Positions 1 to 59,288 of a DNA stretch of 64,000 nucleotides are shown one piece after another (positions within the stretch are counted from its first letter, which is position 1; each line of letters begins with the position of its first letter). Source of the DNA: Thermoplasmata archaeon (GTDB taxonomy: Archaea > Thermoplasmatota > Thermoplasmata > Lutacidiplasmatales > UBA184); the NCBI GenBank assembly GCA_035945215.1, contig DASZAJ010000002.1, positions 34,129 to 98,128 on the forward strand, read 5' to 3'. The position numbers and the translations under genes were made by a program. Below the pieces are notes generated by a model, which ran no database searches, was not told where the DNA came from, and worked only from the letters and a program-made list of their open reading frames with translations.

Positions 1-1950
1 TGTCCGAGCCCGATCCGAGCGTGGAGACCGCGGAGAAGACGACGGTCTGGCCGACGTCCGCCGAGGACCGGCTCGCCGCGGCGCTGAGGGTGGGGTCGGC
101 GAAGACCGTCAGGGTGACCGATCCGCTCGACGTGCCCACGCCGTTCGAGTCGATGACGTGGACGGAGACCACGAAGGCGGCCGAGCTCGTCACGGAGTTC
201 GGCGCCACGCAGCTGACGGTAGCCGTCGATCCGGAACAGCCCGAGGGGAGGCCCGACCAGCTGTAGCTGAAGCCGCCGCTGCCCAGTGCGGCGGTGGCCG
301 TGAACGAGACGAGTTGGCCGACGTCGGCGCTCGCCCGGGTCTCACTCGCCGACACCGTCGGGTCGGAGAAGACGGTGAACGCAAGCGGGCTGCTCGTGAC
401 CGACTTCGCGTTCGAGTCGGTCACCGTGGCGCTCACCGTGGAGGCGGCGGGCGTGGTCACGGTACAGCTGACGTCGGGGGAGGCCGGTGCCGCCGGGCAG
501 CCGGCGGGCAGCCCGGTCCAGGCGAACGCGTAGGTGCCCGATCCGGAGGCCGCCGTGGCCGTGAAGACGACGGTCTGCCCCACGTCCGCCGATACCGGCG
601 ACGCCGATACCGTGACCGTCGGATCCGGGAAGACGTTGAAAGTGACGACGTTGCTCGAGGCCGACATTCCGTTGGAGTCGGTCACCGTCTCCGAGACCAG
701 GTAGGTTCCCGAGGTGGTCACGGACGCGCAGGCCACCGAGGCCGTCGCCGGGCTCGCCGGGCAGCCGGCCGGTAGGCCCGTCCAGGCGATGGTGACGCCG
801 CCCGAGCCGCCCACGGTCGTCGAACCGAAGGTCACCGGCTGACCGATGTCCGCCGAGGCGACGCTCGGGACGACGGAGGTCGCCGGGTCGGCGAAGACGG
901 TGAAGCTCAGCGGGGCGCTCGTGGCCACGAAGCCGTTCGAGTCCGTCACCTGCGCGGTGATGGAGTAGGTGCCCGCGGCGCTCGGGTTGCAGGTGACCGT
1001 GCCGCTCGACCCGCTGCAGCCCGTCGGAAGGCCGGCCCACGCCCACAGGAGACCGCCGGAGCCCGACGAGGTCGGGAGATCCGTGAAGGTCACGGCCTGG
1101 CCGACGTCGGCGGACGCGCGGCTCGGCGAGGGCGACGCGAGCGCGGGGTCCGAAAAGACGGAGAACGACGTCGCTCCGCTCGATCCACTGCCCCCGTTCG
1201 AGTCGGTGACGGTGACGCTGACCGAGAAGCTCCCGGAGGCGCTGACGGTGCACGTGATGGAGGCCGTGGTCGGTGCGATCGGACAGCCCGTCGGCAAGCC
1301 GCTCCAAGCAAAGGTGAACCCGCCGGATCCGCCGGCGGCCGCAGCGCCGAAGTTGACCAGTTGTCCGACGTCGGCCGACGCGGCCGAGGGCGATAGGGAG
1401 ACCGTCGGATCCGCGTCCACCACGAACAATAGGGTGCTGCTCGTGTAGGAGCCGCCGATCGTGCTGTACGGCCCGTCGGTCACCGTCGCCGAGATCGAGT
1501 AGGTCCCGGCGGTTCCGAGGCTGGCGCAGGTGACGGTTCGGGTCGTGGTGCCCGAGCAGCCGGCCGGTAGACCGTTCCAGGAGAAGACGAGCCCCCCGGC
1601 GGTCCCGCCAGATTCGATCGTACTGAACGTCACGGATTGGCCGACGTCGGCGGAGGTCCGCGATGCCGTGGGGGTGGTGACGGTCGGATCCGGGTTCACG
1701 ACGACCGTCATGCTCGAGGTGGCCGTGCTCCCCACATTGTCGGTGACGGTCACCGTGGCGGTGTACCCGCTCGGGCCCGACGCTGTGGCGTAGGCGTGGC
1801 TGGCGGTCGGCGAAGCCGTGGTGGCGGTCGCGCCGTCGCCAAAGCTCCAGGCGTAGGAGGCGTACGGCGTGAATCCGAGCATCGCCGTGGCCGTGAACGT
1901 GACGGTGACGCCGACGTCCGTCGGGGGCTCGCTCGCGGGGGACGTTAGGG
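1..1950 (-). repeat. One canonical PKD domain followed by about 7 PKD-like Cys-pair repeats
   Basis: YAWSFGDG near 1840. Repeats of DVGQxVxF...W-x-GLP-x-GC...C...VTD with DVG near 1650, 1370, 1110, 850, 580, 320 and 55. Confidence 0.8.
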
Positions 1951-4900
1951 CGAGGCTGACGGTCAGGTCGGTGGTGACGGTGTAGTTGAAGCTCGCCTGG
2001 AGGCCCGTATCGGTGGCGGTGATGAGGACCGGCCCCGCCGCTTCCCGGGGGATGGTGAACGTCCCGCAGGTGAAGCTTCCGTTGGCCAGGGTCGAGGTCG
2101 ACGGACAGATGCTCGACCCGGAGGAGCCGACGGGGGTCCAGACGACGTTAACGGTCTGGGAGGCGAAGAAGCCCGTCCCGTTCACCCAGATGACCCCGCC
2201 CACCATCAGGTCGTCCGGCTGGGCGATGATGGTCGGAACCACGGTGAGTCCGGCGGTCGCCGAATTCGAGTGCGCGTCGGTCCCGGTCAGGGTGTACTTT
2301 GCCGCCGGCGTGGCCGGTATCACCGAGCTGCACGAGAACGTCCCGAGGGCGTCGGCGGTCCCCGAGCACAGGGTACCCGGCGTCCAGGTGACCGTGACGG
2401 TGTCGCCCGCGGTAAACCCTTGGCCGTCGACGGTGACCGTGGTGCCCGCGATCCCGTAGCCTCGGGCCTCGCCGCTCGTCGGGGTTACGATGATGAACGG
2501 CCCGACGGTGAACACGGCGCTCGCGGTGTTGGTCGCCGGGTCCACCGCCGTTACGGCGTGACCGCCGATCGGAGCGGAGGGCACGGTGAACGTGCAGGTG
2601 AATCCGCCCGTGGCGCTCGTCGAGAGCGAGCCGGAGGTGCAGGTGAGGCTGGTCGTAGGGCCGCTCCAGGTCAGGGTCACGGACGACGACCCGATGAACC
2701 CGGTTCCGGTGGCGGTGGTCGAGCTGCCCACGATCCCGGCCGACGGGGTGAGAACGAGGTTCGATCCCACCAGGTACGTGGCCGTCGCCGAGTTGCTCGA
2801 CGTATCGGTGGCCGTTACGAGGTGGCCCCCGTGGACGGCCGCCGGTACCGTGAACGAGCAGGAGAAGAAACCGGTGGCGTTCGTCGTCGCGCTGCACAGG
2901 GCGAGGGCGCCCGGCGCCCAGGTGACCGAGGTCACGAGCGCGCCGCCGAAACCGTTCCCGATCGCGGTGGAGGTCGATCCGACCACCCCCACGGCCGGGG
3001 CGAGCGCGAGGCTCGAGACGATCGTGAACGTGCTGGACGCCGAATTGGACGACGCATCGGTCGCGGTCACGGAGTGGGGTCCCGCGACCGCCGGGGGGAC
3101 CTGGAAGGCGCAGGTGAACGACCCCGTGGCGCCGGTGACGAGCGAGCCGCTCGTGCACGCGAGGCCGATGTTGGGGGCGGTCCAGGCGAGGCCCACGTTG
3201 GAGGTGCCGGCGAATCCGGTGCCCGAGGCAGTCGTGCTGCTGCCGACGATACCGCTCGTCGGGCTGAGGACGAGCTTCGCCGTCACGGTGAACGAGGTGG
3301 TCGCCAAGTCGCTCGCGGCGTCCGTACCGGTCACCGTGTGGGCGCCATTGACGGCGGCCGGGACGACGAAGGAGCAGCTGAAGTCACCGGTGGGATTCGT
3401 CGTGGAAGTGCACAGGGTCGCTCCGCCCGGTGACCAGGAGACGGTCACCGCCGAGCTACCGGCATACCCGTGGCCCGATGCCGTGACGGGGGTGGCCACC
3501 GGCCCGACCGAGACGCTCAAGGAGATCGAAGGGGCGACGGTGAACGTCGCGCTCGCGGTCTGGGCGCCGGCGCTGCCGGTCACCACGTTCGCGCCGATCG
3601 GGGCGCTGGGAACGGTGATCGAACAGCTCCAGTCGCCGACCGCGCCCACGGTGCCGGTCGGGGTGCAACTGACCGCCCCGCCCGAGAAGGTGACCGAGAA
3701 CGACGCGCCGCTCGGGAACCCGGCCCCGGTGACGACCACGCTCGTGCCGACGATCCCGCCCGTCGGACTGAGGCTCAAACTGGGGGCGACCGTGAACGTC
3801 GCGGTGGCGCTGTTGCTCGAGGCGTCGGTCCCCGTGACCGTGTGGGCGCCGGTGACCGCATGGGGGACGGTGAAGGTGCAGGTGAACGATCCCACGGTCG
3901 ACGAGGAGGCGGTGCACAACGTAGCCCCGCCGGGCGACCAGGTCACGGTCACCGCAGCACTCCCGGCATACCCGGTCCCGGTGGCCGTCGCGGAACTACC
4001 GACGATCCCCGAGGAGGGGGCGAGGGCGAGGCTCGCGTCGACCGTGAAGGTCGCGCTCGCGCTGTTCCCCGATCCGTCCGCGGCGACGAGGGTGTGGGCC
4101 CCGTGGACGGAGGGGGGGACGGTGAACGTCAGGTCATACGAACCGGTGGCGGGGGAGGACGCGGAGCCGCCCACGATCGTCGACCCATCCCAGGTGTCGG
4201 GGCTGGGGAAGATCAACAACGACGATCCATAGCCGGTCATGAAAGCGACGAACGTCGAACCGACCACGCCGCTGGTCGGCGAGAGGACCACATGGGGCAC
4301 CACCGTGAACGACGTCGACGCGGTGTGCGAGCTCGCATCCGTCGCCGCGACCGTGTGAGCCCCGGCGAAGGCGGCCGGCACGGTGAACGTGCAGCCGAAC
4401 CCGCCCGCGGAGGAGGTCGTCAGGGAACCGGAGGTGCACGATAGGGTCGTGGAGCCGTCCCAGGTCAGCGTGATCGTGCTGGCGCCGGCGTACCCCGTGC
4501 CGGTGACCGTCGCCGAGCTTCCGACGATGCCGCTGGTGGGCGATATGGTCAGGTTGGCGACGATCGAGAACGTTGCCGACGCCGTATTCGACGCGGCATC
4601 GGTCGCGGTGATCGCGTGGGCCCCAAAGACCCCGGCAGGGACCGTGAACGAGCAGGCGAACGCGCCCGTGAGGTTCGTCGAACCCGTGCAGACCGTCACG
4701 GCGCTCACGGAGGCGAAGCTGACCGATACGGCCGCGGCCGAAGCGAACCCGTTCCCGAGCACGCTGACGGAGCTCCCGACGGCCCCCATCGCCGACCCCG
4801 GCGCGGTGATCACCAGGCTCGAGGACGTCACGAAGGTGGCCGATGCGGTGTTCGACGACGCGTCGGTCGCGCGGACGAGATGGCCCCCGGCCGTCGAGGG

Positions 4901-7900
4901 TGGGACCAGGAACGTGGCGCTGAACCCCCCCGTCGAGTCCGAGGTGAACGTCGCCTGGGGGGCCGAGGAGCACGAGCTTCCGCCGGTGCAGGTGAGGGCC
5001 TGGCTGCCGCCCCAATTCATCGAGACGGTCGAGCTGGCCGCGAACCCCGTGCCCGTGACGGTGACCGTGGTTCCAACCGCTCCGCCGGTCGGAGCGAGCG
5101 TGATCTTGGAGGTCACCGTGAACAAGGCGCTCGCGGTACTCGCGTTCACCGACGAGTCGGTGCCGTGGAACGTGTAGGTACCCGCGGCGGTCGCGGGGAC
5201 CGTGAAGAAGCTCCCGCACGCGGCGGGGGTGAAGCTCCCCGACGAGTTCGCGCTCAGGGTGCAGACGAACGTGATCGAGGTCCACGATACGCTGACGGTG
5301 ACCGAGGCGGAGGCGCCGTAACCCGATCCGCTCACCGAGACGACCGTTCCGACGGGCCCGCTCGTCGGGGATACGGTGAGCGTCGGCTCGACGGTGAAGA
5401 TCGTGCTCGCCGCGTTGGTGCCGTCGGAGCCGGTGACGGAGTGGCCCCCTTGGAAGGCGATCGGTACGGTGAACGAGCAGCTGACATCGCCGACCGCGTT
5501 GCTCGTCGCGGAGCACAGCGTCCCGCTCGGCTTCCAGCTCATCGTCACACTCGCGGTTCCGGCAAAGCCGGTCCCCGTGGCGGTCACCGAGGTTCCCACC
5601 TGGCCGCTCGTGGGGACGATGGAGACCTCGGGAAGGATCGAGAAAGTGGCCGTGGCGGAGTTGGCGGTCGGGGACGCCGAGTCGGTACCCGTCACGGTAT
5701 GGCTGCCGGCGACGGCGTGCGGCGCGGTGAAGCTGCACGAGAAGCTGCCGAAGGAGTTCGTGGTGGCGGTGCACAAGGTCGCGCCGCCGGGCGCCCAACT
5801 GACCGTCACCGCGGAAGCGGCCGCGAACCCGAAGCCGGTCGCGGTGATCGCGGTGGTCCCGACCACGCCGCTCGTGGTGCCCAGCGTGAGGCTTGGGAGC
5901 ACCTTCAGCGTGGCACTCGCCGTGTTGGAGGCACTGTCCGTCGCGGTGGTCGTATAGGTCCCGGCGGGAGTTTGTGGGATCGAGAAGACCGCGCAGGAGA
6001 AGTCACCGGTCGACGCGACCGAGCCCGTGCAGCTGAAGGTGGTCGGTCCGGCGAAGGTGATGCTGGCGGTGATCGACGCGCCGGAGGCGAACCCGGTCGC
6101 GGCCCAGCCATAGGCGGTCCCTTCGGTCCCGCTCGTGGGCGAGATCGAAAGGGCCGGCTCCACGGTAAAGCTCGAGGTCGCTGAGCTTGGCGAACCGCTG
6201 GACTCGGTTCCGGTGATCGTGTACGTGCCTTGGGCCGTGTGGGCGACCGTGAAGGTGCACGACCACTGCCCGAGGGCGGAGACCACGGATCCCACGGTGC
6301 AGCTGATCGTGCTCGCCGCCGACCAGGTGACCGTGACCGAGGCCCCGGTCGAGTACCCGTTCCCGCTGACGGTAGCCGAACTGCCGACGATGCCGCTCGT
6401 GGGGGAAACCGATTCACTGGGCCCGACGGTGAACGGAGCGGAAGCGGTGTTGCTTGCGGCATCCGTCGCCGTGACGCTGTGGGCTCCCTGATCGGCGGTC
6501 GGGACGGTGAACGAACAGCTGAAACCGCCGGTGGCGCCCGTCGTGGCCGTGCACAGCGTGCCCGCCCCGGACGGACTCCAAGTCACGGTGGTGCTCGACG
6601 ACGCCGCGAACCCGGTTCCGGTGATCGTGGAGGAGGACCCGACCGGCCCGCTCGTCGGCGACAGGGAGACCGCGCTCGTCACGCTGAACATCGTCGCGGC
6701 CGAGTTGGTCGAGCTGTCGGTGGCGGTCACGGTGTGGCTCCCCGCGACGGCGGCCGGAACGGTGAAGCTGCACGAGAAGTCGCCCGCCGCGCTGGTGGTC
6801 GCCGAACACAGGGACGCCGCCCCCGGGGACCAGGTGACGGCCGTCAGCGAACCGCCGGCGAAGCCGTGACCCGACACGGTGACACTGGTGCCGACCGGAC
6901 CGGAGGTCGGGGAGAGTTGGATCGTCGAGACGACGGTGAAGGTGGCGCTCGCGGTGTTGGAGGAATGGTCGGTCGCACTGACCGTATGAGCTCCGATCAC
7001 CGCCGATGGCACTGTGAACGTGCAGGTGAAGGTACCGTTCGCGTGGGTCGTGATGGCCCCCTGGGTGCACGTCATGGCGGCCGCGTCGAAGGAGATCGTG
7101 GTAGTGGAGCTGCCCGCGAAGCCGGTCCCGGTGGCGGTCAGGGTGCTGCCGACCGGTCCACTCGAGGCGGATAGCGCCAGGCTGGGATTCACGGTGAAGG
7201 AAGCCGCGGCGGAGTTCGACGAACCGTCGGTCCCCGTGACGGTGTGGACTCCCTGAACGTCCGACGGGACCTGGAAGGTGCAGCTGAACGACCCCGAGCT
7301 GTTCGAGGTCGCCGTGCAGACCGTGATCGAGCCGGGCGACCAGGTCACCGTGACCGAGGACGAGGCCGCAAACCCACTGCCCGACGCGGTCGCGCTCGAC
7401 CCGACCACGCCGCTGGAGGCCGAGAGCGTCACCTGCGACGAGACGGTAAAAGTCGCCGTGTTGAAGTTGGAAGGAATGGCATTGTCGGCCGCGGTCACCG
7501 TATGCGTGCCCTGGACGGCGGGGGGGACCAGGAAGGAGCAGGAGAAGCCGCCGCCCGAACTGGTCGTTGCCGAGCACAACGCGACGGCGTTGGGCGACCA
7601 CGTGACGGCGACCGAAGCCGTGGCGGCGAACGAGGTTCCCGTGACGGTCACGCTCGTGCCGACGGGGCCGCTCGAGGTGGACAGGGAGATGCTGCAACCG
7701 CTGTTGCAGGTCGCCAGCGGCCGGGCCGGCGCGGCTCCGCCCGACGGAGCGCTCGTCGTCCAGTACGTTGCCAAGGCGGTATTCGGGGGGGAAGCCAGGT
7801 CGGTGGCGGTGACCGAGTGGGGCCCCACGGCACCCGTGGGCACGACGATCGGACAGACGAACGAGCCGTCCGCCGCTGTCGACGCCGTCTGGCCGGCGCT

Positions 7901-9580
7901 GCAAAGGATCGGGCTGTTGTCCCAAGCGATCTGGACGGGCGTGGAACCGGCGAACCCGCCCCCGATGAGATCGATGATCGTGCCGGCCGGGCCGCTACCC
8001 GGGGCCAGGGTAAGGCTCGGAGTGACCAGGAGCGAGATACTCGGGGCTCCGCCGGAACCCGCGAGCGTCGTCAGGTCCCGAACATTCAGTTGGTGCGACC
8101 CGGCGGTGGCCGCTGGGACCACGAACAGGCAGGAAAATCCGCCATTGGCGGTTACCGTGGTGCACAGCGACTTCGACGATGTGTCCCAGCCCACAGCGAC
8201 CTTCGAGTTCTCCCAGAATCCCGTACCGGTAAGGACCACGTAGGCTCCCACCGCAGCGGTCGCCGAAGAGAGGGCCAGAGCCGGCGCGACGTCGACCGCC
8301 CCGGAGGGAATGGCCAGGACCCCGTTCGACTCGATGGCGAGTGTGTGCGGTCCGCGCACCGTGGCCGGGACGGTGATCGCGCATTCGACAGAGCCGGTCG
8401 GCGTGGTCTTCAGGGTGACCGACGAACAGGCGATCGTCGCCCAATCCCACAGGACCGAGTACGCGGCGTTCGCCGGGAGGCCCTCCGCCGAAACCGAGAT
8501 CGTGTCGCCGACCTGGGCGTTTTGGGTGGACAGCGAGGCGCTCGGCCCGACCGAGACGGTGGCGCCGACCGAGATCGTCGAACCGCCGCCCAGGATCTGG
8601 GCTATGATGGGGTGCGCGCCGTTCGAAAGGGTCGGGACAGTGAAACCACACCGGAACGTTCCGGACGCCGAGGCGACGCCCGCGCATGCCGCACCCCCGG
8701 CGGCCCACTGAATCTCGACGTTGGCGAAAGCGGGGAACCCGGTTCCGGTGGCAATTTCGGATTCGCCGACGGTGGCGGTCGCCTGGGATAGGACGACGCT
8801 CGGAGTGACGGTGAAGCCGACCCTCACCGAGGCGGAGGCGGAACCCGCGCCCCCCGAGTAGGAAAGGAAGTGCTGACCCTCCGGTGAGGAGGGCACGAGG
8901 AATGAACAGGTTAGGCTTCCCAGGCGGTCGGAGACCGTGGTGCAAACCGACCCGATCAGGGGCCATTCGAGTGAGATGCGTTCGAACGCGGGGAACCCCG
9001 TGCCTATGGCGTTCGCGCGCGTCCCGACGCTCCCTGAGTGCGAAGAAAGACCTAGTGTCGGGGTAACCACGAACGTCGCGCTAGAGGTATCGGCGATCCT
9101 CGCCGAATCGGCGACCGTCACGGCGTGCGGTCCAGCGGGGCCAGCCGGGACTTTCAATGAGCAACTGACCACCCCTGCTGCGCTTGTGAGGGGAGAAAGG
9201 CTTGAACACGGAATGGCCGCTCCATCCCAGGCGACTGTGAAGGCCGAACTCGGGAGAAACCCGGAACCCGTGACGACAAGTGAGGTCCCGACCCCCCCTT
9301 GGCTCAAGAACAAGGACAAGCCGGGGTTCAGAGCGGGGTTCGACCGCAGGCTCGGCGAACCGGCAAGGGCGCCATGCGAGGCCCCCTCCGGTCCTATCGC
9401 GTGATTAGAGATCCCAAGCGTCCCCCCGGAAGCTCCGAAGAGTGTAGACAAAACCATCGCGAGTAGGACAGTCCAGATCACGAGGGTCATCCCTCGGGGG
9501 CGAGGTTGTCGCGATGCAGACTCGCTGACAAAATGCTCGTTCGGCCGGCTGGGAGACTCCGGGCTCAAGGAGGAGGGCAT
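1..9580 (-). CDS. Giant exported repeat protein, >3,190 aa, 3' end beyond the left edge: signal peptide, about 28 Ig/IPT-like Cys-pair repeats, then PKD and PKD-like repeats
   Basis: Hand translation from ATG 9580 (alternative ATG 9490) gives MPSSLSPE...MTLVIWTVLLAMVLSTLFGASGG (hydrophobic leader), then repeats such as GSFTCTFTVP. The same frame at 58 reads DVGQTVVFSAVSTLGSGS. Every sampled segment is in this frame and the track lists no closed ORF in it, consistent with an ORF that has no stop inside the window. Confidence 0.9.
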   Translation of the reverse strand, partial: MPSSLSPESPSRPNEHFVSESASRQPRPRGMTLVIWTVLLAMVLSTLFGASGGTLGISNHAIGPEGASHGALAGSPSLRSNPALNPGLSLFLSQGGVGTSLVVTGSGFLPSSAFTVAWDGAAIPCSSLSPLTSAAGVVSCSLKVPAGPAGPHAVTVADSARIADTSSATFVVTPTLGLSSHSGSVGTRANAIGTGFPAFERISLEWPLIGSVCTTVSDRLGSLTCSFLVPSSPEGQHFLSYSGGAGSASASVRVGFTVTPSVVLSQATATVGESEIATGTGFPAFANVEIQWAAGGAACAGVASASGTFRCGFTVPTLSNGAHPIIAQILGGGSTISVGATVSVGPSASLSTQNAQVGDTISVSAEGLPANAAYSVLWDWATIACSSVTLKTTPTGSVECAITVPATVRGPHTLAIESNGVLAIPSGAVDVAPALALSSATAAVGAYVVLTGTGFWENSKVAVGWDTSSKSLCTTVTANGGFSCLFVVPAATAGSHQLNVRDLTTLAGSGGAPSISLLVTPSLTLAPGSGPAGTIIDLIGGGFAGSTPVQIAWDNSPILCSAGQTASTAADGSFVCPIVVPTGAVGPHSVTATDLASPPNTALATYWTTSAPSGGAAPARPLATCNSGCSISLSTSSGPVGTSVTVTGTSFAATASVAVTWSPNAVALCSATTSSGGGFSCSFLVPPAVQGTHTVTAADNAIPSNFNTATFTVSSQVTLSASSGVVGSSATASGSGFAASSSVTVTWSPGSITVCTATSNSSGSFSCTFQVPSDVQGVHTVTGTDGSSNSAAASFTVNPSLALSASSGPVGSTLTATGTGFAGSSTTTISFDAAAMTCTQGAITTHANGTFTCTFTVPSAVIGAHTVSATDHSSNTASATFTVVSTIQLSPTSGPVGTSVTVSGHGFAGGSLTAVTWSPGAASLCSATTSAAGDFSCSFTVPAAVAGSHTVTATDSSTNSAATMFSVTSAVSLSPTSGPVGSSSTITGTGFAASSSTTVTWSPSGAGTLCTATTGATGGFSCSFTVPTADQGAHSVTATDAASNTASAPFTVGPSESVSPTSGIVGSSATVSGNGYSTGASVTVTWSAASTISCTVGSVVSALGQWSCTFTVAHTAQGTYTITGTESSGSPSSATSSFTVEPALSISPTSGTEGTAYGWAATGFASGASITASITFAGPTTFSCTGSVASTGDFSCAVFSIPQTPAGTYTTTATDSASNTASATLKVLPSLTLGTTSGVVGTTAITATGFGFAAASAVTVSWAPGGATLCTATTNSFGSFSCSFTAPHAVAGSHTVTGTDSASPTANSATATFSILPEVSIVPTSGQVGTSVTATGTGFAGTASVTMSWKPSGTLCSATSNAVGDVSCSFTVPIAFQGGHSVTGSDGTNAASTIFTVEPTLTVSPTSGPVGTVVSVSGSGYGASASVTVSVSWTSITFVCTLSANSSGSFTPAACGSFFTVPATAAGTYTFHGTDSSVNASTASALFTVTSKITLAPTGGAVGTTVTVTGTGFAASSTVSMNWGGSQALTCTGGSSCSSAPQATFTSDSTGGFSATFLVPPSTAGGHLVRATDASSNTASATFVTSSSLVITAPGSAMGAVGSSVSVLGNGFASAAAVSVSFASVSAVTVCTGSTNLTGAFACSFTVPAGVFGAHAITATDAASNTASATFSIVANLTISPTSGIVGSSATVTGTGYAGASTITLTWDGSTTLSCTSGSLTTSSAGGFGCTFTVPAAFAGAHTVAATDASSHTASTSFTVVPHVVLSPTSGVVGSTFVAFMTGYGSSLLIFPSPDTWDGSTIVGGSASSPATGSYDLTFTVPPSVHGAHTLVAADGSGNSASATFTVDASLALAPSSGIVGSSATATGTGYAGSAAVTVTWSPGGATLCTASSSTVGSFTCTFTVPHAVTGAHTVTGTDASSNSATATFTVAPSLSLSPTGGIVGTSVVVTGAGFPSGASFSVTFSGGAVSCTPTGTVGAVGDWSCSITVPSAPIGANVVTGSAGAQTASATFTVAPSISLSVSVGPVATPVTASGHGYAGSSAVTVSWSPGGATLCTSTTNPTGDFSCSFVVPAAVNGAHTVTGTDAASDLATTSFTVTAKLVLSPTSGIVGSSTTASGTGFAGTSNVGLAWTAPNIGLACTSGSLVTGATGSFTCAFQVPPAVAGPHSVTATDASSNSASSTFTIVSSLALAPAVGVVGSTSTAIGNGFGGALVTSVTWAPGALALCSATTNATGFFSCSFTVPAAVHGGHLVTATDTSSNSATATYLVGSNLVLTPSAGIVGSSTTATGTGFIGSSSVTLTWSGPTTSLTCTSGSLSTSATGGFTCTFTVPSAPIGGHAVTAVDPATNTASAVFTVGPFIIVTPTSGEARGYGIAGTTVTVDGQGFTAGDTVTVTWTPGTLCSGTADALGTFSCSSVIPATPAAKYTLTGTDAHSNSATAGLTVVPTIIAQPDDLMVGGVIWVNGTGFFASQTVNVVWTPVGSSGSSICPSTSTLANGSFTCGTFTIPREAAGPVLITATDTGLQASFNYTVTTDLTVSLALTSPASEPPTDVGVTVTFTATAMLGFTPYASYAWSFGDGATATTASPTASHAYATASGPSGYTATVTVTDNVGSTATSSMTVVVNPDPTVTTPTASRTSADVGQSVTFSTIESGGTAGGLVFSWNGLPAGCSGTTTRTVTCASLGTAGTYSISATVTDGPYSTIGGSYTSSTLLFVVDADPTVSLSPSAASADVGQLVNFGAAAAGGSGGFTFAWSGLPTGCPIAPTTASITCTVSASGSFSVSVTVTDSNGGSGSSGATSFSVFSDPALASPSPSRASADVGQAVTFTDLPTSSGSGGLLWAWAGLPTGCSGSSGTVTCNPSAAGTYSITAQVTDSNGFVATSAPLSFTVFADPATSVVPSVASADIGQPVTFGSTTVGGSGGVTIAWTGLPAGCPASPATASVACASVTTSGTYLVSETVTDSNGMSASSNVVTFNVFPDPTVTVSASPVSADVGQTVVFTATAASGSGTYAFAWTGLPAGCPAAPASPDVSCTVTTPAASTVSATVTDSNAKSVTSSPLAFTVFSDPTVSASETRASADVGQLVSFTATAALGSGGFSYSWSGLPSGCSGSTATVSCVAPNSVTSSAAFVVSVHVIDSNGVGTSSGSVTLTVFADPTLSAAASRSSADVGQTVVFSAVSTLGSGSD
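1980..9300 (-). repeat. About 28 tandem, diverged ~87-aa protein repeats (~260-nt period)
   Basis: The motif G-x-F-x-C-x-F-x-V-P recurs near 9150, 8900, 8640, 8370, 8120, 7840, 7530, 7270, 7010, 6760, 6500, 6250, 5980, 5720, 5460, 5190, 4910, 4640, 4380, 4115, 3865, 3610, 3360, 3095, 2845, 2580, 2320 and 2050. Confidence 0.85.
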
Positions 9581-9593
9581 GTCGGCGCCACAA

Positions 9594-9751
9594 TAGCCAG
9601 TCTATATCATTGTTGTGGGAAAATTTCCGTTTTTTCGACGAAAAATCATCCCCTGATTCTGAATTGTATACTGTAAATGAAACTACGAATCCTAACTAGT
9701 TCGGCTTTGAGTCGGCTGAACTGAAATTGCATCCCTTTATATTCATCGAGA
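9594..9751. promoter_or_regulatory. AT-rich divergent promoter region with two TATA-like boxes and palindromes
   Basis: Minus-strand GATATAG at about 9602-9608, roughly 25 nt before ATG 9580. Plus-strand TTTATAT at 9736-9742, roughly 25 nt before GTG 9767. Palindromes: ggaaa-a-tttcc (9618-9628), tttttcg-a-cgaaaaa (9631-9645) and aactagtt (9694-9701). Confidence 0.65.
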
Positions 9752-11188
9752 ATGTGCCGCGCGCTTGTGCGGGTGGCTCCGTCGATCGTTCTTTCGCGCG
9801 CGGAGGGTCGGGAACTCAACGCATTGTGCACGAGCCCCGGGACCCTTCCGAGATTGGCGCTACGGGCATGGATCGTGCTCCGATCTTCCGAAGGGGTCGA
9901 CAACCGAACTATCGCATCCGAATTCATGGTGGACGAGGCGACGGTGGCGCTCTGGAGACGAAGATTTCTGGTCCATCGAATCGCCGGAATCCTCTCGGAC
10001 GCCCCCCGATCGGGCCGGAAGCCCAGGATTCCCGCTGCCCTCGTTGCCAAGATCGCTGCAGCTCGGAGCGTAGGACCATTCGGGGCGGCGAATACTCCGA
10101 CGAGCCGGGCGGTCGCGCGAGAGATGCGGGTCAGCCAATCCACGGTCGTAAGAATCTGGAAGACCCACGAAGGCCCGACCTCCACCGACGTATCGGTCGA
10201 TGAGGACACCCCCCTTCCCGCTCGGCCCATCCGGGATGTTCGAGGCATCTACCTCTGCGGTGAGGATCGGTGCGTGGTGCTCATCTCCCAGAAGGACGAG
10301 CCCACGTCGGCCATCGAAGCGCGGGACACGGGAACGAGACACTCGCGAGGACCGCTTCCGGTCGAAACCCCCCGTCGTCCCCCTCGGGACCCGTTGGCGG
10401 CGGTTCGTGTGATCTATCGTACCATACTTCCGGAACCCGGGGCTCACGACCGACTGGGGGATTTCCTACTCTTCCTCCGAGGCGTCGAGTTCCACCTCGG
10501 CCCAAATGAGATTGCCCATGTCCTGCTCCAGACGAGCCTTCTCGGGAAGGACGCGACGCTCCTTCGGTGGTTGCGCCGTCGGCCCGGGTTCGTATTGTAC
10601 CTGTCGTCCGCCGGGACGACCCCCAGCCGTCCGAGCTTCGATTTGCCCGATGGCCTCACGACGCAGGGGGTGCGTCCCAGCAGCCTGCGCAGTCTTCCGA
10701 AGCTGATCGACGCCTTCCGGGTCTTTTCGGTGACTTCGGATCGCCATCCGCGCCCATTTGCCTGGACCCTTCCCGAAGTCCCGTCCTCGGCGTCGATCGC
10801 GAGCCATCGCGCTCCGACGCCGCGAGCGGTCTCGGTCACCGCGCATTGGCTGACACCGCCCATCCTCGGGAGCGAGGCGAATACCCTGGGTGGGTCGATC
10901 GGGGCGGAGCCTATCGCGCCGTCCACGTCGATGGCTTTCCTTCCGATTCGGGCGGGCTTGGCGGGAGGGTTCGCGACTCGCCTCGAACCCCCAGCCATTC
11001 CACGGGGTTCCTTGCCTTCGGGCGCACCGATTTCGGAGGCATCGAACGTAACGCCCACCGGTCCTTCGGATGGCCCATCCTCCTCGATCGCGTCCGGGGT
11101 CCCATCGTCCCCAGGGCCCCTGGACGGGCGTCTTCGGAAGGCCCCCCCCGGTTCCCATTCCCCCTCGCCACGAGAAGGGACCGGGTAG
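9752..11188 (+). CDS. IS630-family transposase homologue with intact HTH region, degenerate DDE domain and Pro/Ser-rich tail (probable start GTG 9767)
   Basis: LALRAWIVLRSSEG, TVALWRRRF, DAPRSGRKPRI, DVRGIYL and HPRPFAWT match IS630 blocks. The usual LxxDN reads LLQT and the usual WLNxVE reads SRPSFD. Confidence 0.85.
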   Translation: MCRALVRVAPSIVLSRAEGRELNALCTSPGTLPRLALRAWIVLRSSEGVDNRTIASEFMVDEATVALWRRRFLVHRIAGILSDAPRSGRKPRIPAALVAKIAAARSVGPFGAANTPTSRAVAREMRVSQSTVVRIWKTHEGPTSTDVSVDEDTPLPARPIRDVRGIYLCGEDRCVVLISQKDEPTSAIEARDTGTRHSRGPLPVETPRRPPRDPLAAVRVIYRTILPEPGAHDRLGDFLLFLRGVEFHLGPNEIAHVLLQTSLLGKDATLLRWLRRRPGFVLYLSSAGTTPSRPSFDLPDGLTTQGVRPSSLRSLPKLIDAFRVFSVTSDRHPRPFAWTLPEVPSSASIASHRAPTPRAVSVTAHWLTPPILGSEANTLGGSIGAEPIAPSTSMAFLPIRAGLAGGFATRLEPPAIPRGSLPSGAPISEASNVTPTGPSDGPSSSIASGVPSSPGPLDGRLRKAPPGSHSPSPREGTG

Positions 11189-11479
11189 TACGGACCGGCG
11201 CGCACCGCGGCGGGCTGGGTCCCGAATCCTATCTCCGCCACGTTATCCTAGATGCGCAGATCGGTCGATCGGGCCAGGGTGAGCCGGCACCGATCGAACT
11301 GAGGGCCGCGGTCCGAATCGGGAACCTTTGAATTCGAGGGACCTCGCCGATCGCCTCCCGGAGCGGACAAGGCTAGTGGCAGCCCCGACGAGGACGCACG
11401 TTGGATCGATCCCGTGCGGTGACGATCCGGGTGCTAGAATTGTATGTAGTCCCAAGGAATCCGGCGGGACGGTGGGCTC

Positions 11480-11824
11480 GTGTTTTGTCCGCAGTGCGGG
11501 AAGGAACTCCCGCCGGATGCGATGCATTGTCCGGGCTGTGGCAGTCCCCGCGCGGCGGCCGGGCCCCTACCGGAGGGCAACGCACCGTCCATGCCGCGGC
11601 CCCCACCCCGGACGGACAGCGTGGACGCCCTCATCGGGGACGCCAAGCGAGCTGCCCTGGAACTGGCGGTGTTGTCGACTCGAATCTCCCAGCGGCTCAT
11701 CGAGCGGGCGGACGCCGCCGCCAAGGATCCCTCGGGCACGGCCCGAAACGCGGCCCGCAAGGCGGCGGCCGAACTGGACAAGGCCCGCAAGGGGATCGAG
11801 CAGGCCCTCGAGCAACTGAAGTGA
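11480..11824 (+). CDS. Zinc-ribbon protein with helical/coiled-coil C-terminus
   Basis: CPQC...CPGC at the N-terminus; Ala/Lys/Glu-rich helical tail. Confidence 0.8.
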   Translation: MFCPQCGKELPPDAMHCPGCGSPRAAAGPLPEGNAPSMPRPPPRTDSVDALIGDAKRAALELAVLSTRISQRLIERADAAAKDPSGTARNAARKAAAELDKARKGIEQALEQLK

Positions 11825-11879: not shown

Positions 11880-12329
11880 CTACCGGGGAAGTCGGTGCCG
11901 CTTCAGGACCAGCCGCCCCTTGCGGTTGGTCGCTGCCACCAGGTGACGGTCGCTGGCGCCCAACACCAGGATCTCGCCATCGGCCAACTTGTGCGTTTGC
12001 GAACCAGCCATCGCCGCGGGCGGGAGACTGGGTGAAGCTGGATCGACCGCCCGAGGGGCCGCTGGGCGGCCCCGTTGGACCGCCTGGCCGAGCCGGTAGA
12101 TCTTCTCCCGGCCGGACTTGACCATCGATAGTTCGCCCCGACGGACCAAGAGTCGCAGTGCGTTATAAATGGAATTTCGATGGTACTTTTTCCCCCGGAC
12201 CTTGGCTAGGCGTTTCGCGATCTCGGAGGTGGACATTCGAGCCCCCGCGCCGACCCCCCGCAATTCGGCCATGATCCAAGAAGGCGTTCCGCGACGGCCT
12301 TTCGGCGACCTTGCATCTCCCCGGGACAT
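11880..12329 (-). CDS. Winged-helix DNA-binding protein
   Basis: MSTSEIAKRL...HRNSIYNALRLLVRRGELSMVKSGREKIYRL fits a wHTH pattern. Confidence 0.7.
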   Translation of the reverse strand: MSRGDARSPKGRRGTPSWIMAELRGVGAGARMSTSEIAKRLAKVRGKKYHRNSIYNALRLLVRRGELSMVKSGREKIYRLGQAVQRGRPAAPRAVDPASPSLPPAAMAGSQTHKLADGEILVLGASDRHLVAATNRKGRLVLKRHRLPR

Positions 12330-12594: not shown

Positions 12595-13281
12595 TCAGGA
12601 CGTGGGGTTGGGGGTCGCGCTCGTCGACGGCGTAGCGGAGGGTTGGGGGAGACTGATCAATCCGAGGAAGAGTAGAACGATGCCAATGAACTCCGAATAG
12701 TACAGCGCGATCGGGAACGAGGCGATGTACAATGTTCCCCCCGCCCCGAGGATCACCGCCCCTCCGGCCATCAGGAGGGATTGCCAGCGCCACGAGTGCC
12801 ACAGTGACAAGGCTGTCGCGGCAAGGAGGATCACGGTAGCCGGGACCGTCACAAGGGAGGAGAGCTCGATGAGCAGCAACGGGGGGTTGCCAGCGATGAT
12901 CCCCGATTGGACCATCGCCGAGGGGAGGGGGGTCACCGCACAGGCCACCCCGACCACCAGGCACCCGCCGAGCGTGTAGTAGGTGTAGATCCGCTCGATC
13001 CGGGGACTTCGAAGGATCTTGGTCGCGCCCAGCGAGAGGACGCCGACGATCGCCGCGGAGAAGAAGACGTACGCTTGCAGCAGAGGACTCGTCACGATTC
13101 CGACGTAGACGACCGCCTCGATCGCCATCGCGGCCGCCGCGAGAGCCAGGCCGCTCCCCCACATCAATTGCGAGCGCGTTCGGGTCTGACGGAACCGCCA
13201 CACCCCCCGAGCGGCGAGCGCGGTGAGCAACCCGCAGAGCGCCGTAAGCGAGATCGTCAGGGCGATGAACTCCCCGTTCAT
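12595..13281 (-). CDS. Stand-alone 7-TM membrane protein (alternative start 13305)
   Basis: Seven hydrophobic segments from MNGEFIALTISL to FIGIVLLFLGLISL, with no cytoplasmic output domain. Confidence 0.75.
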   Translation of the reverse strand: MNGEFIALTISLTALCGLLTALAARGVWRFRQTRTRSQLMWGSGLALAAAAMAIEAVVYVGIVTSPLLQAYVFFSAAIVGVLSLGATKILRSPRIERIYTYYTLGGCLVVGVACAVTPLPSAMVQSGIIAGNPPLLLIELSSLVTVPATVILLAATALSLWHSWRWQSLLMAGGAVILGAGGTLYIASFPIALYYSEFIGIVLLFLGLISLPQPSATPSTSATPNPTS

Positions 13282-13459
13282 CGGCGCCCCCTCCGACGGA
13301 GCCATGGAATCCCGGGAATCGGAGCCCGCATGCGCCTCGCCTTCTTCCGGGAGGCGGCCCCGCTTATCCGCCCACGGCTCGTACGATACTTGTTCGGCGA
13401 CGGCGGGATCGCGAAACCGGCGAGGGCGCCCCCGACCGGCCGAGGGGCGGGAAACTCGG

Positions 13460-16072
13460 CTACGTCGGTTCGTCCGGAGGTCGCCGGCTGGACCGGCGGG
13501 AAGAGGCCCCTCGGGGGGCCTTCCCCCGCCACAACGACTGCCCGATCCAGATCGCGACGCCGGCCCCCGCCACGGCCGCGAGGATGAGGAGACCGAAACC
13601 TTCCGTCGCGGGCAGGCCGAGCACATCCGAGGAACCTGGCGCCCGGACCGCGTTGGCCCGGAAGTTGACGGTCACCGTGACCGCCGACCCATTGATCAGG
13701 AACGCCCCCTCGCGCGGAGTCGACGTGAATCCGGCGACCGGGGCGACGCTGTACCCGTAGGTCCCGTTGGACAGACCAGGGAAGCGGATCGAACCCGATC
13801 CGCTGGCGGGCTTCCCGTCCAGGGTCACGCTCCACCCAGCCCCCGTCGGCAAACCCTTCTCCTCGAAGATGACCGGGTAGGTCACGGGGACGAAGGCGAC
13901 GGCCTCCAGGAGTGAGACGCCGGCCACGTTGGACGTCCCGAACGCGTTCCCCAGCGGTGTGTAACTCGAGTTCGACGATGCCAGCGTGTAGGTGTAGCTT
14001 CCGTTCGTGAGCGCGAAGCTGATGTTGGCGCCGACGGAGTGGGCGACCGCACCGCCGGTCAGGTTCACCGACCACGCGCCCCCGATCGGCAGGCCCGTTT
14101 CGACGAAGGTAACCGCGAAGGTAACGTCGCTGAACCGCACCGGGACATTGGCGGGCCCGCCGACCACCGCGAACTGGCCCCCCGGCGCGATGAAGCGCGG
14201 ATCCTGGACCGCGATGGAATAACTGTAGGTTCCGTTCGCGATCTGAAGACCCAGATCGGACGTCGCCCCGGCGAGCAGGGGTCCCCCGGTGAGGTTCACC
14301 CACCAGCCGACGCCCGTCGGCAATCCGACCTCCGCGAAGTCGACGGCGTACACGACCTCGGTCCAGGCCACGAGGCGGCTGACCGAAGCTCCGTGGACAT
14401 CGATGCTCCCGGTGAAGTTCGTCGTCGTCCAACCCGCGATCCCGGCGACCCGGAACGGGTACGTCCCATTCCTCTCGAGGAAGTGGATCGAGGCGACCGT
14501 CGGGCCGAGCGAGACACCCCCCAATGTGACCGACCACGCCGTGGACGTCGGGAGTCCCGTCTCCGCGAAATTCACATTGTAGGTGACGGGTACAAAGGTC
14601 AGCGGCGAGGTCACGTCGGTGCCATTGACCGAGACCGTACCGCTGCGAGCGGCGAAGGTCGGATCGCTGGAGGTGACGGTGAAATTGTACACGCCGTCCC
14701 CGGCCCGCACGATCAGCTCGGAGGTGTTCGAGGAGGCGATCGGCTCGCCGGTGACGTTCACCGACCAAACCGTCCCGCTCGGGAGCCCTGATTCGTTGAA
14801 GATGATTCGGTGCCAAGTCGGGAAGAAGCTCACGTTGTTGGACCCGAAATTGACGACGTAGATGTATCCGTTCGCCGGGTCGTAGGCCGTCGCCCAGGGA
14901 TAGGAGCCGGCGGGCACGGAATATAGTACCGAAGTGCCGTCGATCACGCTCACGTTGTTGGACGCGTCGTTGGCGACGTAGACGTAGCCATTGCCGTCGT
15001 TATAGCTCGGGAGCTCGGGTCCGGATCCGACTGGGATCGTCGCGATGACCAGTCGGTCATGGAGCACACTGACGGTCCCGCCCACGGCATTCGCGATGTA
15101 TACGTCGCCCGAGCGAGCATCGTAGACCCCCGAATAGGGGCCGGACCCCACGGGGACCGTGGTGAGCACGGTGGTGTTGTTGAGGATGCTCACCGAGTTG
15201 GCCCCGTAATCGGGTACATAGACCTCCCCGTTCGAGGGGTCGAAGATCGGGGTCTCGGGCTCGCCCGAGACGTTCACGGTGCGGATGAGCTGGGTGCCGT
15301 TGAGGACGCTCACCGTGTTCGAATTGTAATTCGAGACGTAGACCCGGCCCGTGGCGCTGTCGAACGCCAGTCCGTCGGGGCTCATCCCGACCGTGACCGT
15401 CCGAACGAGGCTGGTCCCGTTCAAGATCGACACTGCATTGACGTTGTCGTCGACGACGTAGACGTAGCCGTTCGCCGGGTCATACCCGATCGCGTAGGGA
15501 CCGTATCCGGCCCCGGGCGACCCGACCAGTTTCGTCCGATTGAGCACGCTCACGTTGTTGCTCGCCGAGTTCGCCACGTACACCCATCCGTTCCCCGGGT
15601 CGAAGGTGGCCTGGGCCGGGGAACTCCCGAGGCTCGGCGAGGCGATGACGCGGGAGCCGTTGATGATGCTCAGATTGTTCGAGCCGCCATTGATCACATA
15701 GACCCATCCGTTCGCGGTATCGACGGTGGCGGCAATGGGGGTCATGCCCACGTGGACCGAGGATACGTTCGGGGCGTGGGGGGCCATCGGCGGGACCGTT
15801 CGACCACCCTCGGGAACCGGTCCGGACCGAGGGACCACCGGGGACCCGGCAACCGTCCCAGTGGCATTGCTCGGGGACGTGGTGGGCCCTGAAAGGTCGG
15901 CTGCCGAGTACGGGACGTTCACCGTGGTCCGGTGGGGGCTCACCAATGACAGACTACCGACGTGGAAAGACCCTTCCCCCGGGACCCATCCGTTACTGGG
16001 AAGGAGCAAGGCGAGCGCGACGATCGCGAGCCAAATCGGTACGGCCGGGCGGCCCGGACCGAACGTCAGCAC
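13460..16072 (-). CDS. Surface protein: 8 YVTN/YncE-type propeller repeats, 5 thermopsin-type repeats, C-terminal TM anchor
   Basis: Eight GxxP...DxxNGxVYVxNxxSNxVS repeats; five VxFxExGLPxGxxWxVxL repeats; signal peptide; TM followed by a basic tail; many N-x-S/T sequons. Confidence 0.9.
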   Translation of the reverse strand: MLTFGPGRPAVPIWLAIVALALLLPSNGWVPGEGSFHVGSLSLVSPHRTTVNVPYSAADLSGPTTSPSNATGTVAGSPVVPRSGPVPEGGRTVPPMAPHAPNVSSVHVGMTPIAATVDTANGWVYVINGGSNNLSIINGSRVIASPSLGSSPAQATFDPGNGWVYVANSASNNVSVLNRTKLVGSPGAGYGPYAIGYDPANGYVYVVDDNVNAVSILNGTSLVRTVTVGMSPDGLAFDSATGRVYVSNYNSNTVSVLNGTQLIRTVNVSGEPETPIFDPSNGEVYVPDYGANSVSILNNTTVLTTVPVGSGPYSGVYDARSGDVYIANAVGGTVSVLHDRLVIATIPVGSGPELPSYNDGNGYVYVANDASNNVSVIDGTSVLYSVPAGSYPWATAYDPANGYIYVVNFGSNNVSFFPTWHRIIFNESGLPSGTVWSVNVTGEPIASSNTSELIVRAGDGVYNFTVTSSDPTFAARSGTVSVNGTDVTSPLTFVPVTYNVNFAETGLPTSTAWSVTLGGVSLGPTVASIHFLERNGTYPFRVAGIAGWTTTNFTGSIDVHGASVSRLVAWTEVVYAVDFAEVGLPTGVGWWVNLTGGPLLAGATSDLGLQIANGTYSYSIAVQDPRFIAPGGQFAVVGGPANVPVRFSDVTFAVTFVETGLPIGGAWSVNLTGGAVAHSVGANISFALTNGSYTYTLASSNSSYTPLGNAFGTSNVAGVSLLEAVAFVPVTYPVIFEEKGLPTGAGWSVTLDGKPASGSGSIRFPGLSNGTYGYSVAPVAGFTSTPREGAFLINGSAVTVTVNFRANAVRAPGSSDVLGLPATEGFGLLILAAVAGAGVAIWIGQSLWRGKAPRGASSRRSSRRPPDEPT

Positions 16073-57803: not shown

Positions 57804-59288
57804 TCATCCCGCGGCAGCGGTTGCTTCCGGGATGGGGTCAGCGCTGGCTGGACGATGTTCGGTTCGATCGGTGACCGCTACGGAAATTAGGGCGCCGAGA
57901 ACCGATAGGATCGCCGAAACGGCCAGGGCATAGCGCAACCCCGATACGAACTGGCTGGCGGAGCGCAGACTCCCTTCGGCGGTGAATGCCGCGGTTGCGC
58001 CGGCGATGACAAACGCCCCCCCGAACCGTTGCATCGAATTGAAAATTCCCGATGCCTTCCCAAACTCCGCCCTTGGGACGGCGGAGAACGCCGCCAATGG
58101 GACGCAGGGAAGGACCATTGATATCCCGACCCCGGCGACAATGAGTGCGGGCACGAGCGCCTCGTACGATATCGTCGGGCTCGCGAGGTCGATGATCGCG
58201 GCCAGCCCCACCGCCTGGAGCAGCAACCCGATGATCATCAGTGGGCGAGGCCCGATTCGATCTGCCAATCGCCCTGCGAGAGGCGCTACGATGAGCGGGG
58301 TGGCGGTCCACGGAAGGAACCTGATCCCGGCATCAAAAGGGGAGTAGCCTAGGACGTACTGGAAGTATTGAGACATGAACAGCGCTGCCGAGATCAGCGC
58401 ACCCAAGCTGAGGAATGCGACGATATTCGCCGCGAGGAAGGTTCGATTCCGGAAGAATCGAGCCGGGAGGATCGGCGATTCCGCCGTACGCTCCCATATA
58501 GCCAAGGCTCCGAGTAGCACAACCCCGACCGCGAACGAAAGGATTACCTCCGGCGCGTACCAACCGAGGCTACCGCCGCGGATCAGTCCCCAAAGCAGGG
58601 CGACGCTCGCGGCCGTGACGATCGCGGCCCCCCCGAGGTCGAGACGCGACTCGTCGCCGTGCGATTCGGGGATCAGGCGCATGGAGAGCGCTGCTGCAAC
58701 GATCCCAATAGGCACATTGATCCAGAATATCCAATGCCAGGTCAGCGCTTGGGTGATCCCGCCTCCGACCACTGGGCCGGCCGCTACCGCGACCCCGGCG
58801 ACGCCGCCAAAGATTCCGAGGACCGCCCCACGTCTTTGTGGGGGAAAGGAGGCAACAAGGATCGAAAGGCTCGTCGGCATCACGATGGCCGCACCGACCC
58901 CTTGGACGACCCGCGCGAGGATCAGGACGACAATATCGGGTGAGAGAGCGCAGGCGGCCGAAGAAACCGAAAAGATGGTGAGTCCGAGAACGAACAGGTT
59001 CCGACGACCATACCGGTCCCCTAGCGACGCGGCCGTGATGATTCCGGCCCCAAAGGCGAGCAGGTAGCCGCTGAGGATCCACTGGAGGGACGCAACGTCT
59101 CCCCCCACGTCGTGATGGATGAGAGGCAAGGCCGTGACGACGACGAGGCCGTCGAGGACCACCATGAAGACTCCGATCGACGCAAGCGCGAGGGTCCACC
59201 TTGCATGCGCCGCGGCGGGCGGAGAACGTTGCAGGTCCGCCGGCGGTCGCTGGGCGGAGGTCGACTCACCTGACACGGCCACGAGCAC
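57804..59288 (-). CDS. DHA2 (EmrB/QacA) family MFS efflux pump
   Basis: FMVVLDGLVVVTALP, SLGDRYGRR and WHWIFWINVPIG; about 14 TM. Confidence 0.92.
   Translation of the reverse strand: MLVAVSGESTSAQRPPADLQRSPPAAAHARWTLALASIGVFMVVLDGLVVVTALPLIHHDVGGDVASLQWILSGYLLAFGAGIITAASLGDRYGRRNLFVLGLTIFSVSSAACALSPDIVVLILARVVQGVGAAIVMPTSLSILVASFPPQRRGAVLGIFGGVAGVAVAAGPVVGGGITQALTWHWIFWINVPIGIVAAALSMRLIPESHGDESRLDLGGAAIVTAASVALLWGLIRGGSLGWYAPEVILSFAVGVVLLGALAIWERTAESPILPARFFRNRTFLAANIVAFLSLGALISAALFMSQYFQYVLGYSPFDAGIRFLPWTATPLIVAPLAGRLADRIGPRPLMIIGLLLQAVGLAAIIDLASPTISYEALVPALIVAGVGISMVLPCVPLAAFSAVPRAEFGKASGIFNSMQRFGGAFVIAGATAAFTAEGSLRSASQFVSGLRYALAVSAILSVLGALISVAVTDRTEHRPASADPIPEATAAAG

Follow-up and report, generated by a model that had tools for sequence, protein, structure and literature searches.

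The stretch of DNA analysed here (hereafter the window) comprises 64,000 nucleotides (nt) from a Thermoplasmata archaeon (assembly GCA_035945215.1, contig DASZAJ010000002.1, positions 34,129-98,128 of the forward strand). At 9752-11188 on the plus strand it carries an open reading frame (ORF) of 478 amino acids (aa), ATG-initiated and free of internal stops, which an initial annotation made from the letters alone had put forward as a candidate domesticated transposase of the IS630 family facing the gene of a giant surface protein. The head-to-head arrangement with the open frame at 2-9580 on the minus strand is indeed present. The features of the two genes, including the helix-turn-helix (HTH) region of the candidate transposase derivative, are as follows.

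2-9580, minus strand: giant surface-protein gene, an open frame of more than 3193 aa that runs off the window; the divergent partner
9767-11188, plus strand: coding sequence of the IS630-derived protein, with a conserved GTG start, full-length IS630 homology and orthologues
9767-10171, plus strand: N-terminal bipartite (putatively paired-like) HTH DNA-binding region, aa 6-140 in ATG numbering (HTH_32/HTH_29; NF033545 positions 2-108)
10217-10780, plus strand: RNase-H-like core derived from DDE_3 and lacking the DDE triad, aa 156-343, its C-terminal end being the IS630 motif PRPFAWT
10781-11185, plus strand: disordered tail rich in Pro/Ser, aa 344-478, with no counterpart in IS630 transposases
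10922-10975, plus strand: short tail motif STSMAFLPIRAGLAGGFA, aa 391-408, kept in the family alignments

Long spurious ORFs are plentiful in the window, whose GC content is about 68%, so coding status needed proof and could not be assumed. An IS630-like frame had been claimed over 478 codons without stop or frameshift, and this was borne out by the ORF listing and by full-length IS630 homology. The N-terminal block MRVAPSIVL is present as well, but it belongs to the GTG at 9767 and not to the ATG at 9752. The start codon at 9767 (VRVAP, read as M) is GTG in eight of nine loci and TTG in the other, and it lies about 24 nt past a TATA box. GTG 9767 is probably the true start, because a TATA box about 25 nt upstream implies a leaderless mRNA and ATG 9752 precedes the expected transcription start. 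Public gene calls for the orthologues P0001, P0002, P0003 and P0007 begin at assorted downstream ATGs, cutting the HTH short. An Rfam scan of 9300-11600 gave sub-threshold noise only. The DNA sequencing runs that contain the locus point to a soil source. The GC fraction is about 0.70 over the first 30 kb of the window and lower, about 0.62, at 41-64 kb.

IS630 ancestry and the catalytic triad

In Pfam, the 478-aa protein matched HTH_32 and HTH_29 only (aa 38-136), and a search with DDE_3 (PF13358) gave no match even at E<=1. The NCBIfam model of IS630 transposases, NF033545, was matched at positions 2-108 of 299, with 41.7 bits against a cutoff of 100. Using phmmer, we found true IS630 proteins carrying PF13358 at E 2e-22, with 27-30% identity and about 70% of the query covered; the same search returned the window's own protein and six relatives (P0002-P0007, 42-88% identity) without a recorded DDE_3. 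When the family was compared by hhalign with 12 intact IS630 transposases, the probability was 100% and E 4e-60 over 333 columns, spanning query residues 11-348 and template residues 3-344 of 364, up to the C-terminal PFxW motif. This near whole-length profile-profile alignment identifies the protein as a full-length IS630 derivative.

The HTH region had been described as well kept, in agreement with the Pfam matches and with a ratio of nonsynonymous to synonymous substitution (dN/dS) of 0.13. In the AlphaFold model the HTH helices have a predicted local distance difference test score (pLDDT) of 84-90 and the alpha/beta core reaches 80-90 in part. The best Foldseek match of the full-length model was the Mos1 mariner transposase (4u7b, weak E 7e-3), and the N-terminus was matched to the paired domains of Pax5, Pax6 and prd with a probability of 0.91-0.97 but a weak E of 0.03-0.05 and a template modelling (TM) score of 0.3-0.37. 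The weakness of the full-length matches is explained by flexibly linked domains and by the disordered tail. The proposed addition of a Pro/Ser tail of about 135 aa was likewise seen: aa 344-478 are Pro/Ser-rich and predicted to be disordered (pLDDT below 45). Tails in the core family are 100-140 aa long and their short motif follows the pattern h-x-h-P-x-x-x-[AG]-[LI]-[SA]-G-[GA]-[YF].

The catalytic blocks had been read as altered (LLQT, SRPSFD and a shifted ISQKDE), and the alignments agree. The column of the DEK Asp holds Q180 in the window protein and H, R, A or S in the orthologues (MAFFT and hhalign), and that of the LDN Asp holds Q260 (within LLQT), with E, R or S elsewhere. The NxxE Glu column holds R293 by hhalign or F296 by MAFFT, with no conserved acid. 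Two residues downstream of Q180, D182 and E183 are not conserved among the orthologues. The triad is replaced in every member of the core family, and neither MAFFT nor hhalign yielded an alignment that brings DDE back. The blocks invariant in intact relatives (DEKxQxQAL, HDY, LDNxxxHK and TPTxxSWxN) are all lost in the family; its hydrophobic scaffold is retained (RDVxGxY, FLxFLR, WLxRHPxF and PFxW) and 60-odd residues are invariant across it. As judged from these alignments, the whole family is catalytically dead at the DDE positions.

The triad was also surveyed in the nearest public representatives (P0014-P0153; loci L095 and L096). Among the 109 full-length representatives closest to the family profile, 39 have D-D-E and seven have D-D-D at the triad columns, as aligned by MAFFT at about 25% identity. 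Catalytic defects may affect many of the IS630-like proteins in public databases. One of them, P0017, in which the first Asp and the Glu are dead, sits just upstream of a gene for a 654-aa protein with a Big_7 Ig domain, and another, P0020, follows ABC-2 permease genes.

Selection, copy number and pairing with the giant gene

We compared the gene across ten loci, namely the window, L001, L002, L003/L004, L005, L006, L007, L009, L010 (35% identity) and L013 (P0013, about 34%). Apart from the window, nine of them, which come from uncultured Thermoplasmata and soil metagenomes, have this triad-less gene at 34-89% identity. Selection was estimated by the Nei-Gojobori method, without a codon-bias model. 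Between the window and L001 (dS about 0.2), dN/dS was 0.13 for the HTH, 0.16 for the dead core and 0.82 for the tail; between L007 and L009 (dS 0.8-1.0) the HTH had 0.18 and the core 0.14. A six-frame control located the constraint solely in the annotated frame and its mirror; over the tail, which is near neutral, no frame showed any. The dead core is constrained as strongly as the HTH, and a core dN/dS on a par with that of the HTH means that the core is being maintained for some role and not left to decay. Purifying selection on the HTH had been anticipated for a domesticated gene; it was found, but it is not limited to the HTH, the core being equally constrained. We also considered an antisense gene below the tail (minus-strand ORFs 10444-11241 and 10466-11158) and rejected it, as none of the six frames is constrained there.

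These values bear on the simplest alternative, that the gene is a decaying IS630 relic which stays open merely through the rarity of stop codons at about 68% GC. The many long spurious ORFs that such a composition produces in the window fit this explanation, as do the nearly neutral evolution of the tail and the orthologue in L009 (977-kb contig, MFD00008.bin.2.88), which has a one-base frameshift at 10720-10735. However, the ratios of 0.13-0.18 for HTH and core were obtained in two independent pairs and in the annotated frame only, the ORF is intact in nine of ten loci at saturated dS, and the 60-odd invariant residues are accompanied by a conserved promoter and start codon. Moreover, the shift in L009 consists of a single extra C in a CCC run; when it is read through, the core is intact and the ORF ends at 380 aa. 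The likely cause is a homopolymer error of long-read assembly; less probably, the gene is a pseudogene in that genome. The long-read origin was assumed from the name of the genome, and one C was dropped for the dN/dS calculation only. A dN/dS near 1 in a gene devoid of orthologues, as simple decay predicts, is far from what we observed, and we consider the relic highly improbable.

The gene is not repeated and has no recognizable transposon ends. The reported lack of terminal inverted repeats (TIRs) was confirmed, since the search for flanking inverted repeats around the gene gave nothing above chance-level matches of 13-22 nt. Neither tblastn nor blastn revealed a second copy in the 64-kb window, no paralogue was found in any fetched locus, and near-identical copies with TIRs, which would mark a mobile element, were seen in none of them. 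A scan of 185,579 species-representative genomes yielded four loci, one each in four metagenome-assembled genomes (MAGs) named Thermoplasmata archaeon. The family is rare: of 1.84 billion clusters, seven representatives score above 480 bits, to which P0011 and P0013 can be added. In public records its orthologues are unnamed or listed as hypothetical protein, and a cluster look-up gave no name for those at NCBI. A scan of metagenome contigs gave 80 loci, of which 15 were checked, the best 11 (26-37% identity) among them; all 15 proved to be intact IS630 elements, and no new family member was found among the 15.

The closest intact relatives (31-35% identity), recovered from metagenomes, are 1138-bp elements that occur in several contexts (L021:21-1158, L017:21-1158 and L012). 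Their TIR is CTAGTCTGnnGTTAC, and their layout runs from the left TIR to an archaeal-type TATA box and, about 25 nt further on, to an ATG that opens an MRxAP N-terminus. This layout suggests that the 1138-bp elements are archaeal insertion sequences (ISs) with a leaderless transposase mRNA.

On the conserved side of the gene, the divergent partner is constant. In all ten loci the transposase-derived gene is divergent from an orthologous giant gene, so the syntenic single-copy orthologues proposed as a check exist, with one locus in each of the four MAGs. In the window, the giant protein has an N-terminal membrane anchor, followed by PKD, PKD_4, TIG and Big_6 Ig-like repeats (Pfam). Full-length orthologues have 4377 and 4565 aa and carry PKD domains, and the giant partners share an orthologous N-terminus, consisting of the membrane anchor (...VLSTLFGASGGTLG...) and then an Ig-like domain. 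The opposite flank is variable, with a Zn-ribbon gene in five loci and acyl-CoA dehydrogenase, sugar-nucleotide or other genes elsewhere. Synonymous sites are saturated between lineages that share the pair. The conserved unit is the gene pair, not the wider region. The triad-defective IS630-like proteins P0017 and P0020 are not encoded beside a giant divergent gene, which limits the synteny rule to the core family together with P0011/L010 and P0013/L013.

Several observations were made on the neighbouring genes. The giant gene has a GC content of about 70% and a positive GC skew, and an RVT_1 match at aa 2752-2778 of its product is weak, sub-threshold and probably spurious. Directly downstream of the transposase-derived gene, 11480-11824 (plus strand) encodes a 114-aa zinc-ribbon protein (Zn_Ribbon_1), which L001, L005, L007 and L009 have in the same place and L002, L003 and L006 lack; it could be an accessory partner, or lineage-level synteny alone could account for its presence. 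Further on, 11880-12329 (minus strand) encodes a 149-aa basic protein with a weak winged-helix-like match (MCM5_C, below cutoff), and 12595-13626 (minus strand) a 343-aa multi-pass membrane protein without a Pfam family. Homologues of the latter two proteins occur near the pair in L005, L007 or L009.

The shared promoter region

The two genes are separated by a short divergent region with the following features; repeats were ranked with a position weight matrix (PWM).

9601-9608, minus strand: TATA-like box of the giant gene (CTATAT on the plus strand), about 25 nt before ATG 9580
9635-9645, no strand assigned: conserved block TCGACGAAAAA (consensus cgTCGAAAAA in most loci), between the giant-gene TATA-like box and repeat 1
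9654-9667, plus strand: repeat 1 (TGATTCTGAATTGT), offset -116, PWM rank 1
9686-9699, plus strand: repeat 2 (CGAATCCTAACTAG), offset -84, PWM rank 21
9717-9730, plus strand: repeat 3 (TGAACTGAAATTGC), offset -53 in seven loci, PWM rank 3, directly upstream of the TATA box
9736-9742, plus strand: TTTATAT, the TATA box of the transposase-derived gene, centred about 28 nt before GTG 9767

The spacing from the giant ATG (9580, minus strand) to GTG 9767 is 185-187 bp in seven of nine measured loci. The TATA box that had been ascribed to the transposase-derived gene was recovered, and TTTATAT or TTTAAAT stands at the same offset in the aligned orthologous loci; across the nine aligned loci, T26-A27-T28-A29 of the giant gene's TATA-like box do not vary. 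A TATA element about 25 nt before each start codon implies that the two genes probably give leaderless transcripts. Over the last 150 nt, five divergent lineages share 47% ungapped in-register identity, against 25.5 +/- 4% when the sequences are slid.

Within this region, we identified three phased direct repeats, YGAnTCnnAAnT, at fixed offsets of -116, -84 and -53 from the start, with spacings of 32 and 31 bp, about three helical turns. The ranks given above come from a leave-one-out PWM, built from the other loci only and scored over about 128,000 window positions. The positional conservation of the repeats is a stronger argument than their PWM ranks. Furthermore, repeat 3 occupies a place equivalent to that of the left TIR of the active relatives, and this location suggests that the putative operator may derive from the old transposon end. 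The TCGACGAAAAA block lies about 55-65 nt upstream of the giant gene start, differs from the three repeats and might be recognised by a different factor.

The constancy of this region is also relevant to the idea that the protein is still a mobile or DNA-cutting enzyme, using non-canonical residues (D162, D172 and D213), for instance in rearrangement or phase variation of the giant promoter. The three core Asp residues named are invariant, and in other organisms phase variation of giant adhesin genes is common, which counts in favour of such an enzyme. Nevertheless, intact IS630 transposases conserve D162 and D172 just as strongly, at positions outside the active site, there are no inverted repeats around the promoter or the gene, and the gene is present as one copy in a fixed location. 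In addition, the intergenic region has the same orientation in all loci and the length of 185-187 bp in seven of the nine measured. We regard an enzyme of this kind as very unlikely.

A more serious competitor accepts a domesticated DNA-binding protein but denies it control of the giant gene, assigning it instead to autoregulation, to an architectural or nucleoid role elsewhere in the genome, or to a protein-protein role of its conserved tail motif linked to export or modification of the giant protein; the neighbourhood would then reflect a shared promoter region and not control. The evidence for domestication holds equally under this explanation, the conserved short motif in the tail is in keeping with it, and so are the high PWM scores at 15320 and 58035. 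Still, the pairing with the giant gene was kept in ten of ten loci while the other flank was reshuffled, and a promoter spacing fixed to +/- 1 bp in seven loci is hard to explain for functionally unconnected genes. We judge this alternative rather unlikely, though it deserves more weight than the relic or the enzyme.

Proposed function and relation to known systems

Recruitment of an immobilised IS630 transposase as a host gene in one lineage of soil Thermoplasmata is very likely in our assessment. The domestication proposed in the initial annotation stands on the orthologues, the fixed synteny, the dead triad, a dN/dS far below 1, the lack of TIRs and the lack of extra copies. That the protein is a regulator of the adjacent giant gene is about an even call; this link is inferred, and it is strengthened by the intergenic region of fixed length with its three conserved phased repeats. 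The statement as a whole, a domesticated IS630 transposase acting as regulator of the giant gene and of itself, appears on balance probable.

The gene has been stripped of all three catalytic DDE residues, of terminal inverted repeats and of mobility, and it persists singly under purifying selection, always head-to-head with the giant gene. Its product would act as a sequence-specific DNA-binding regulator. The bipartite, putatively paired-like HTH would bind the three phased repeats between the two divergent leaderless TATA promoters. In Tc1/mariner-type transposases the RNase-H-like core mediates multimerisation, and the dead core of the window protein could serve as an oligomerisation module for cooperative binding. 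The outcome would be control of the giant gene and of the protein's own promoter, through an operator that may descend from the transposon's own left end. As to the sign of regulation, activation or a role in DNA architecture fits better than simple occlusion, because the repeats are located upstream of both TATA boxes.

Several points weigh against this proposal and have to be set beside it. The repeats are rich in A and T, and at a genomic GC content of about 68% any AT-rich spacer scores well by PWM; comparable scores occur elsewhere, at 15320-15333 (a perfect palindrome, CGAATTGTAATTCG) and at 58035-58048 (CGAATTGAAAATTC); these matches may be chance AT-rich sequence or further binding sites. 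The tie between the protein and the repeats is circumstantial; the repeats could belong to another factor, and their likeness to the TIR of the active relatives is weak and limited to an AGTC core, so homology is not claimed. The family comprises about nine distinct representatives, all from MAGs or metagenome contigs of one narrow lineage, and part of the synteny could be due to inheritance. On the protein side, the Foldseek matches are weak throughout (E 7e-3 to 5e-2) and a PDB sequence search with the family profile gave nothing at E<=1. The frameshift in L009 and the lack of a codon-bias model in the dN/dS estimates belong here as well. Finally, none of the RNA sequencing runs searched for the locus contains it.

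Compared with the IS630 family proper (IS630/Tc1/mariner; NF033545; HTH_29/HTH_32 plus DDE_3), the window protein has in common the domain order and the length up to PFxW, and the closest intact relatives show the same MRxAP N-terminus and the same layout of a TATA box followed by a leaderless start. Unlike IS630 transposases, it has no DDE triad, no DDE_3 match and no TIRs, falls below the NCBIfam cutoff, exists as a single fixed copy and bears the tail of about 135 aa. In eukaryotes, CENP-B, SETMAR and the Pax paired domain are domesticated transposases or derivatives of them. Eukaryotic domestications of Tc1/mariner/pogo transposases have been described in a Drosophila screen (PMC13548663) and for pogo elements (PMC7386202). 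As in such cases, a transposase of the same superfamily was immobilised, is under purifying selection at a syntenic locus and has kept its bipartite HTH. The differences lie in the archaeal host, the IS630 ancestor, the retention of and constraint on the whole dead core besides the DNA-binding domain, and the tight pairing with one candidate target gene.

Among prokaryotes, other exaptations of transposon proteins are Cas1, from casposases, and RAYT/TnpA-REP, and TldR, a TnpB-like nuclease-dead repressor, controls flagellin, a surface-structure gene. Like TldR, the window protein is a prokaryotic transposon protein that has lost catalysis and is a proposed regulator. In contrast to TldR, which is of the RuvC/TnpB type and RNA-guided, it comes from the unrelated DDE transposase family, and direct recognition of DNA by its HTH is proposed. 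The arrangement also resembles that of archaeal HTH factors at divergent promoters, with an HTH gene divergent from its putative target and repeats upstream of the TATA boxes; unlike factors of the Lrp/AsnC, TrmB, ArsR or MarR types, its DNA-binding domain is of the transposase (putatively paired-like) type, and its regulatory function is a presumed one.

Dead prokaryotic transposase genes are normally dismissed as decay. To our knowledge, the recruitment of DDE transposases as host DNA-binding proteins, textbook knowledge in eukaryotes, is hardly documented in bacteria or archaea. Our literature searches turned up no report that an IS630 transposase had been domesticated in an archaeon or any other prokaryote, nor any account of this gene pair, and a 2026 survey of archaeal ISs (PMC13343696) does not mention domestication. 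We tentatively suggest that the gene could be the first instance described in archaea, and among very few in prokaryotes, of an IS630/Tc1-mariner DDE transposase turned by domestication into a dedicated transcription factor, in which the core would oligomerise, the operator would come from the left end and the target would be a giant adhesin of more than 4000 aa. The case is a clean one, in that full-length ancestry, catalytic loss, synteny fixed over saturated divergence and selection on both HTH and core are found together, and it offers a concrete candidate target, the 186-bp divergent promoter with three phased repeats before a giant surface-protein gene. As a warning for annotation, proteins listed as IS630-like HTH proteins without DDE_3 may be host genes. 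The locus provides a testable model of how a transposon end and its binding protein turn into an operator-regulator pair, of the reason for keeping a dead RNase-H fold and of the control of the largest surface protein in uncultured soil Thermoplasmata. If the proposal is true, the pair would be an archaeal parallel to the eukaryotic route toward paired-domain and CENP-B-like factors.

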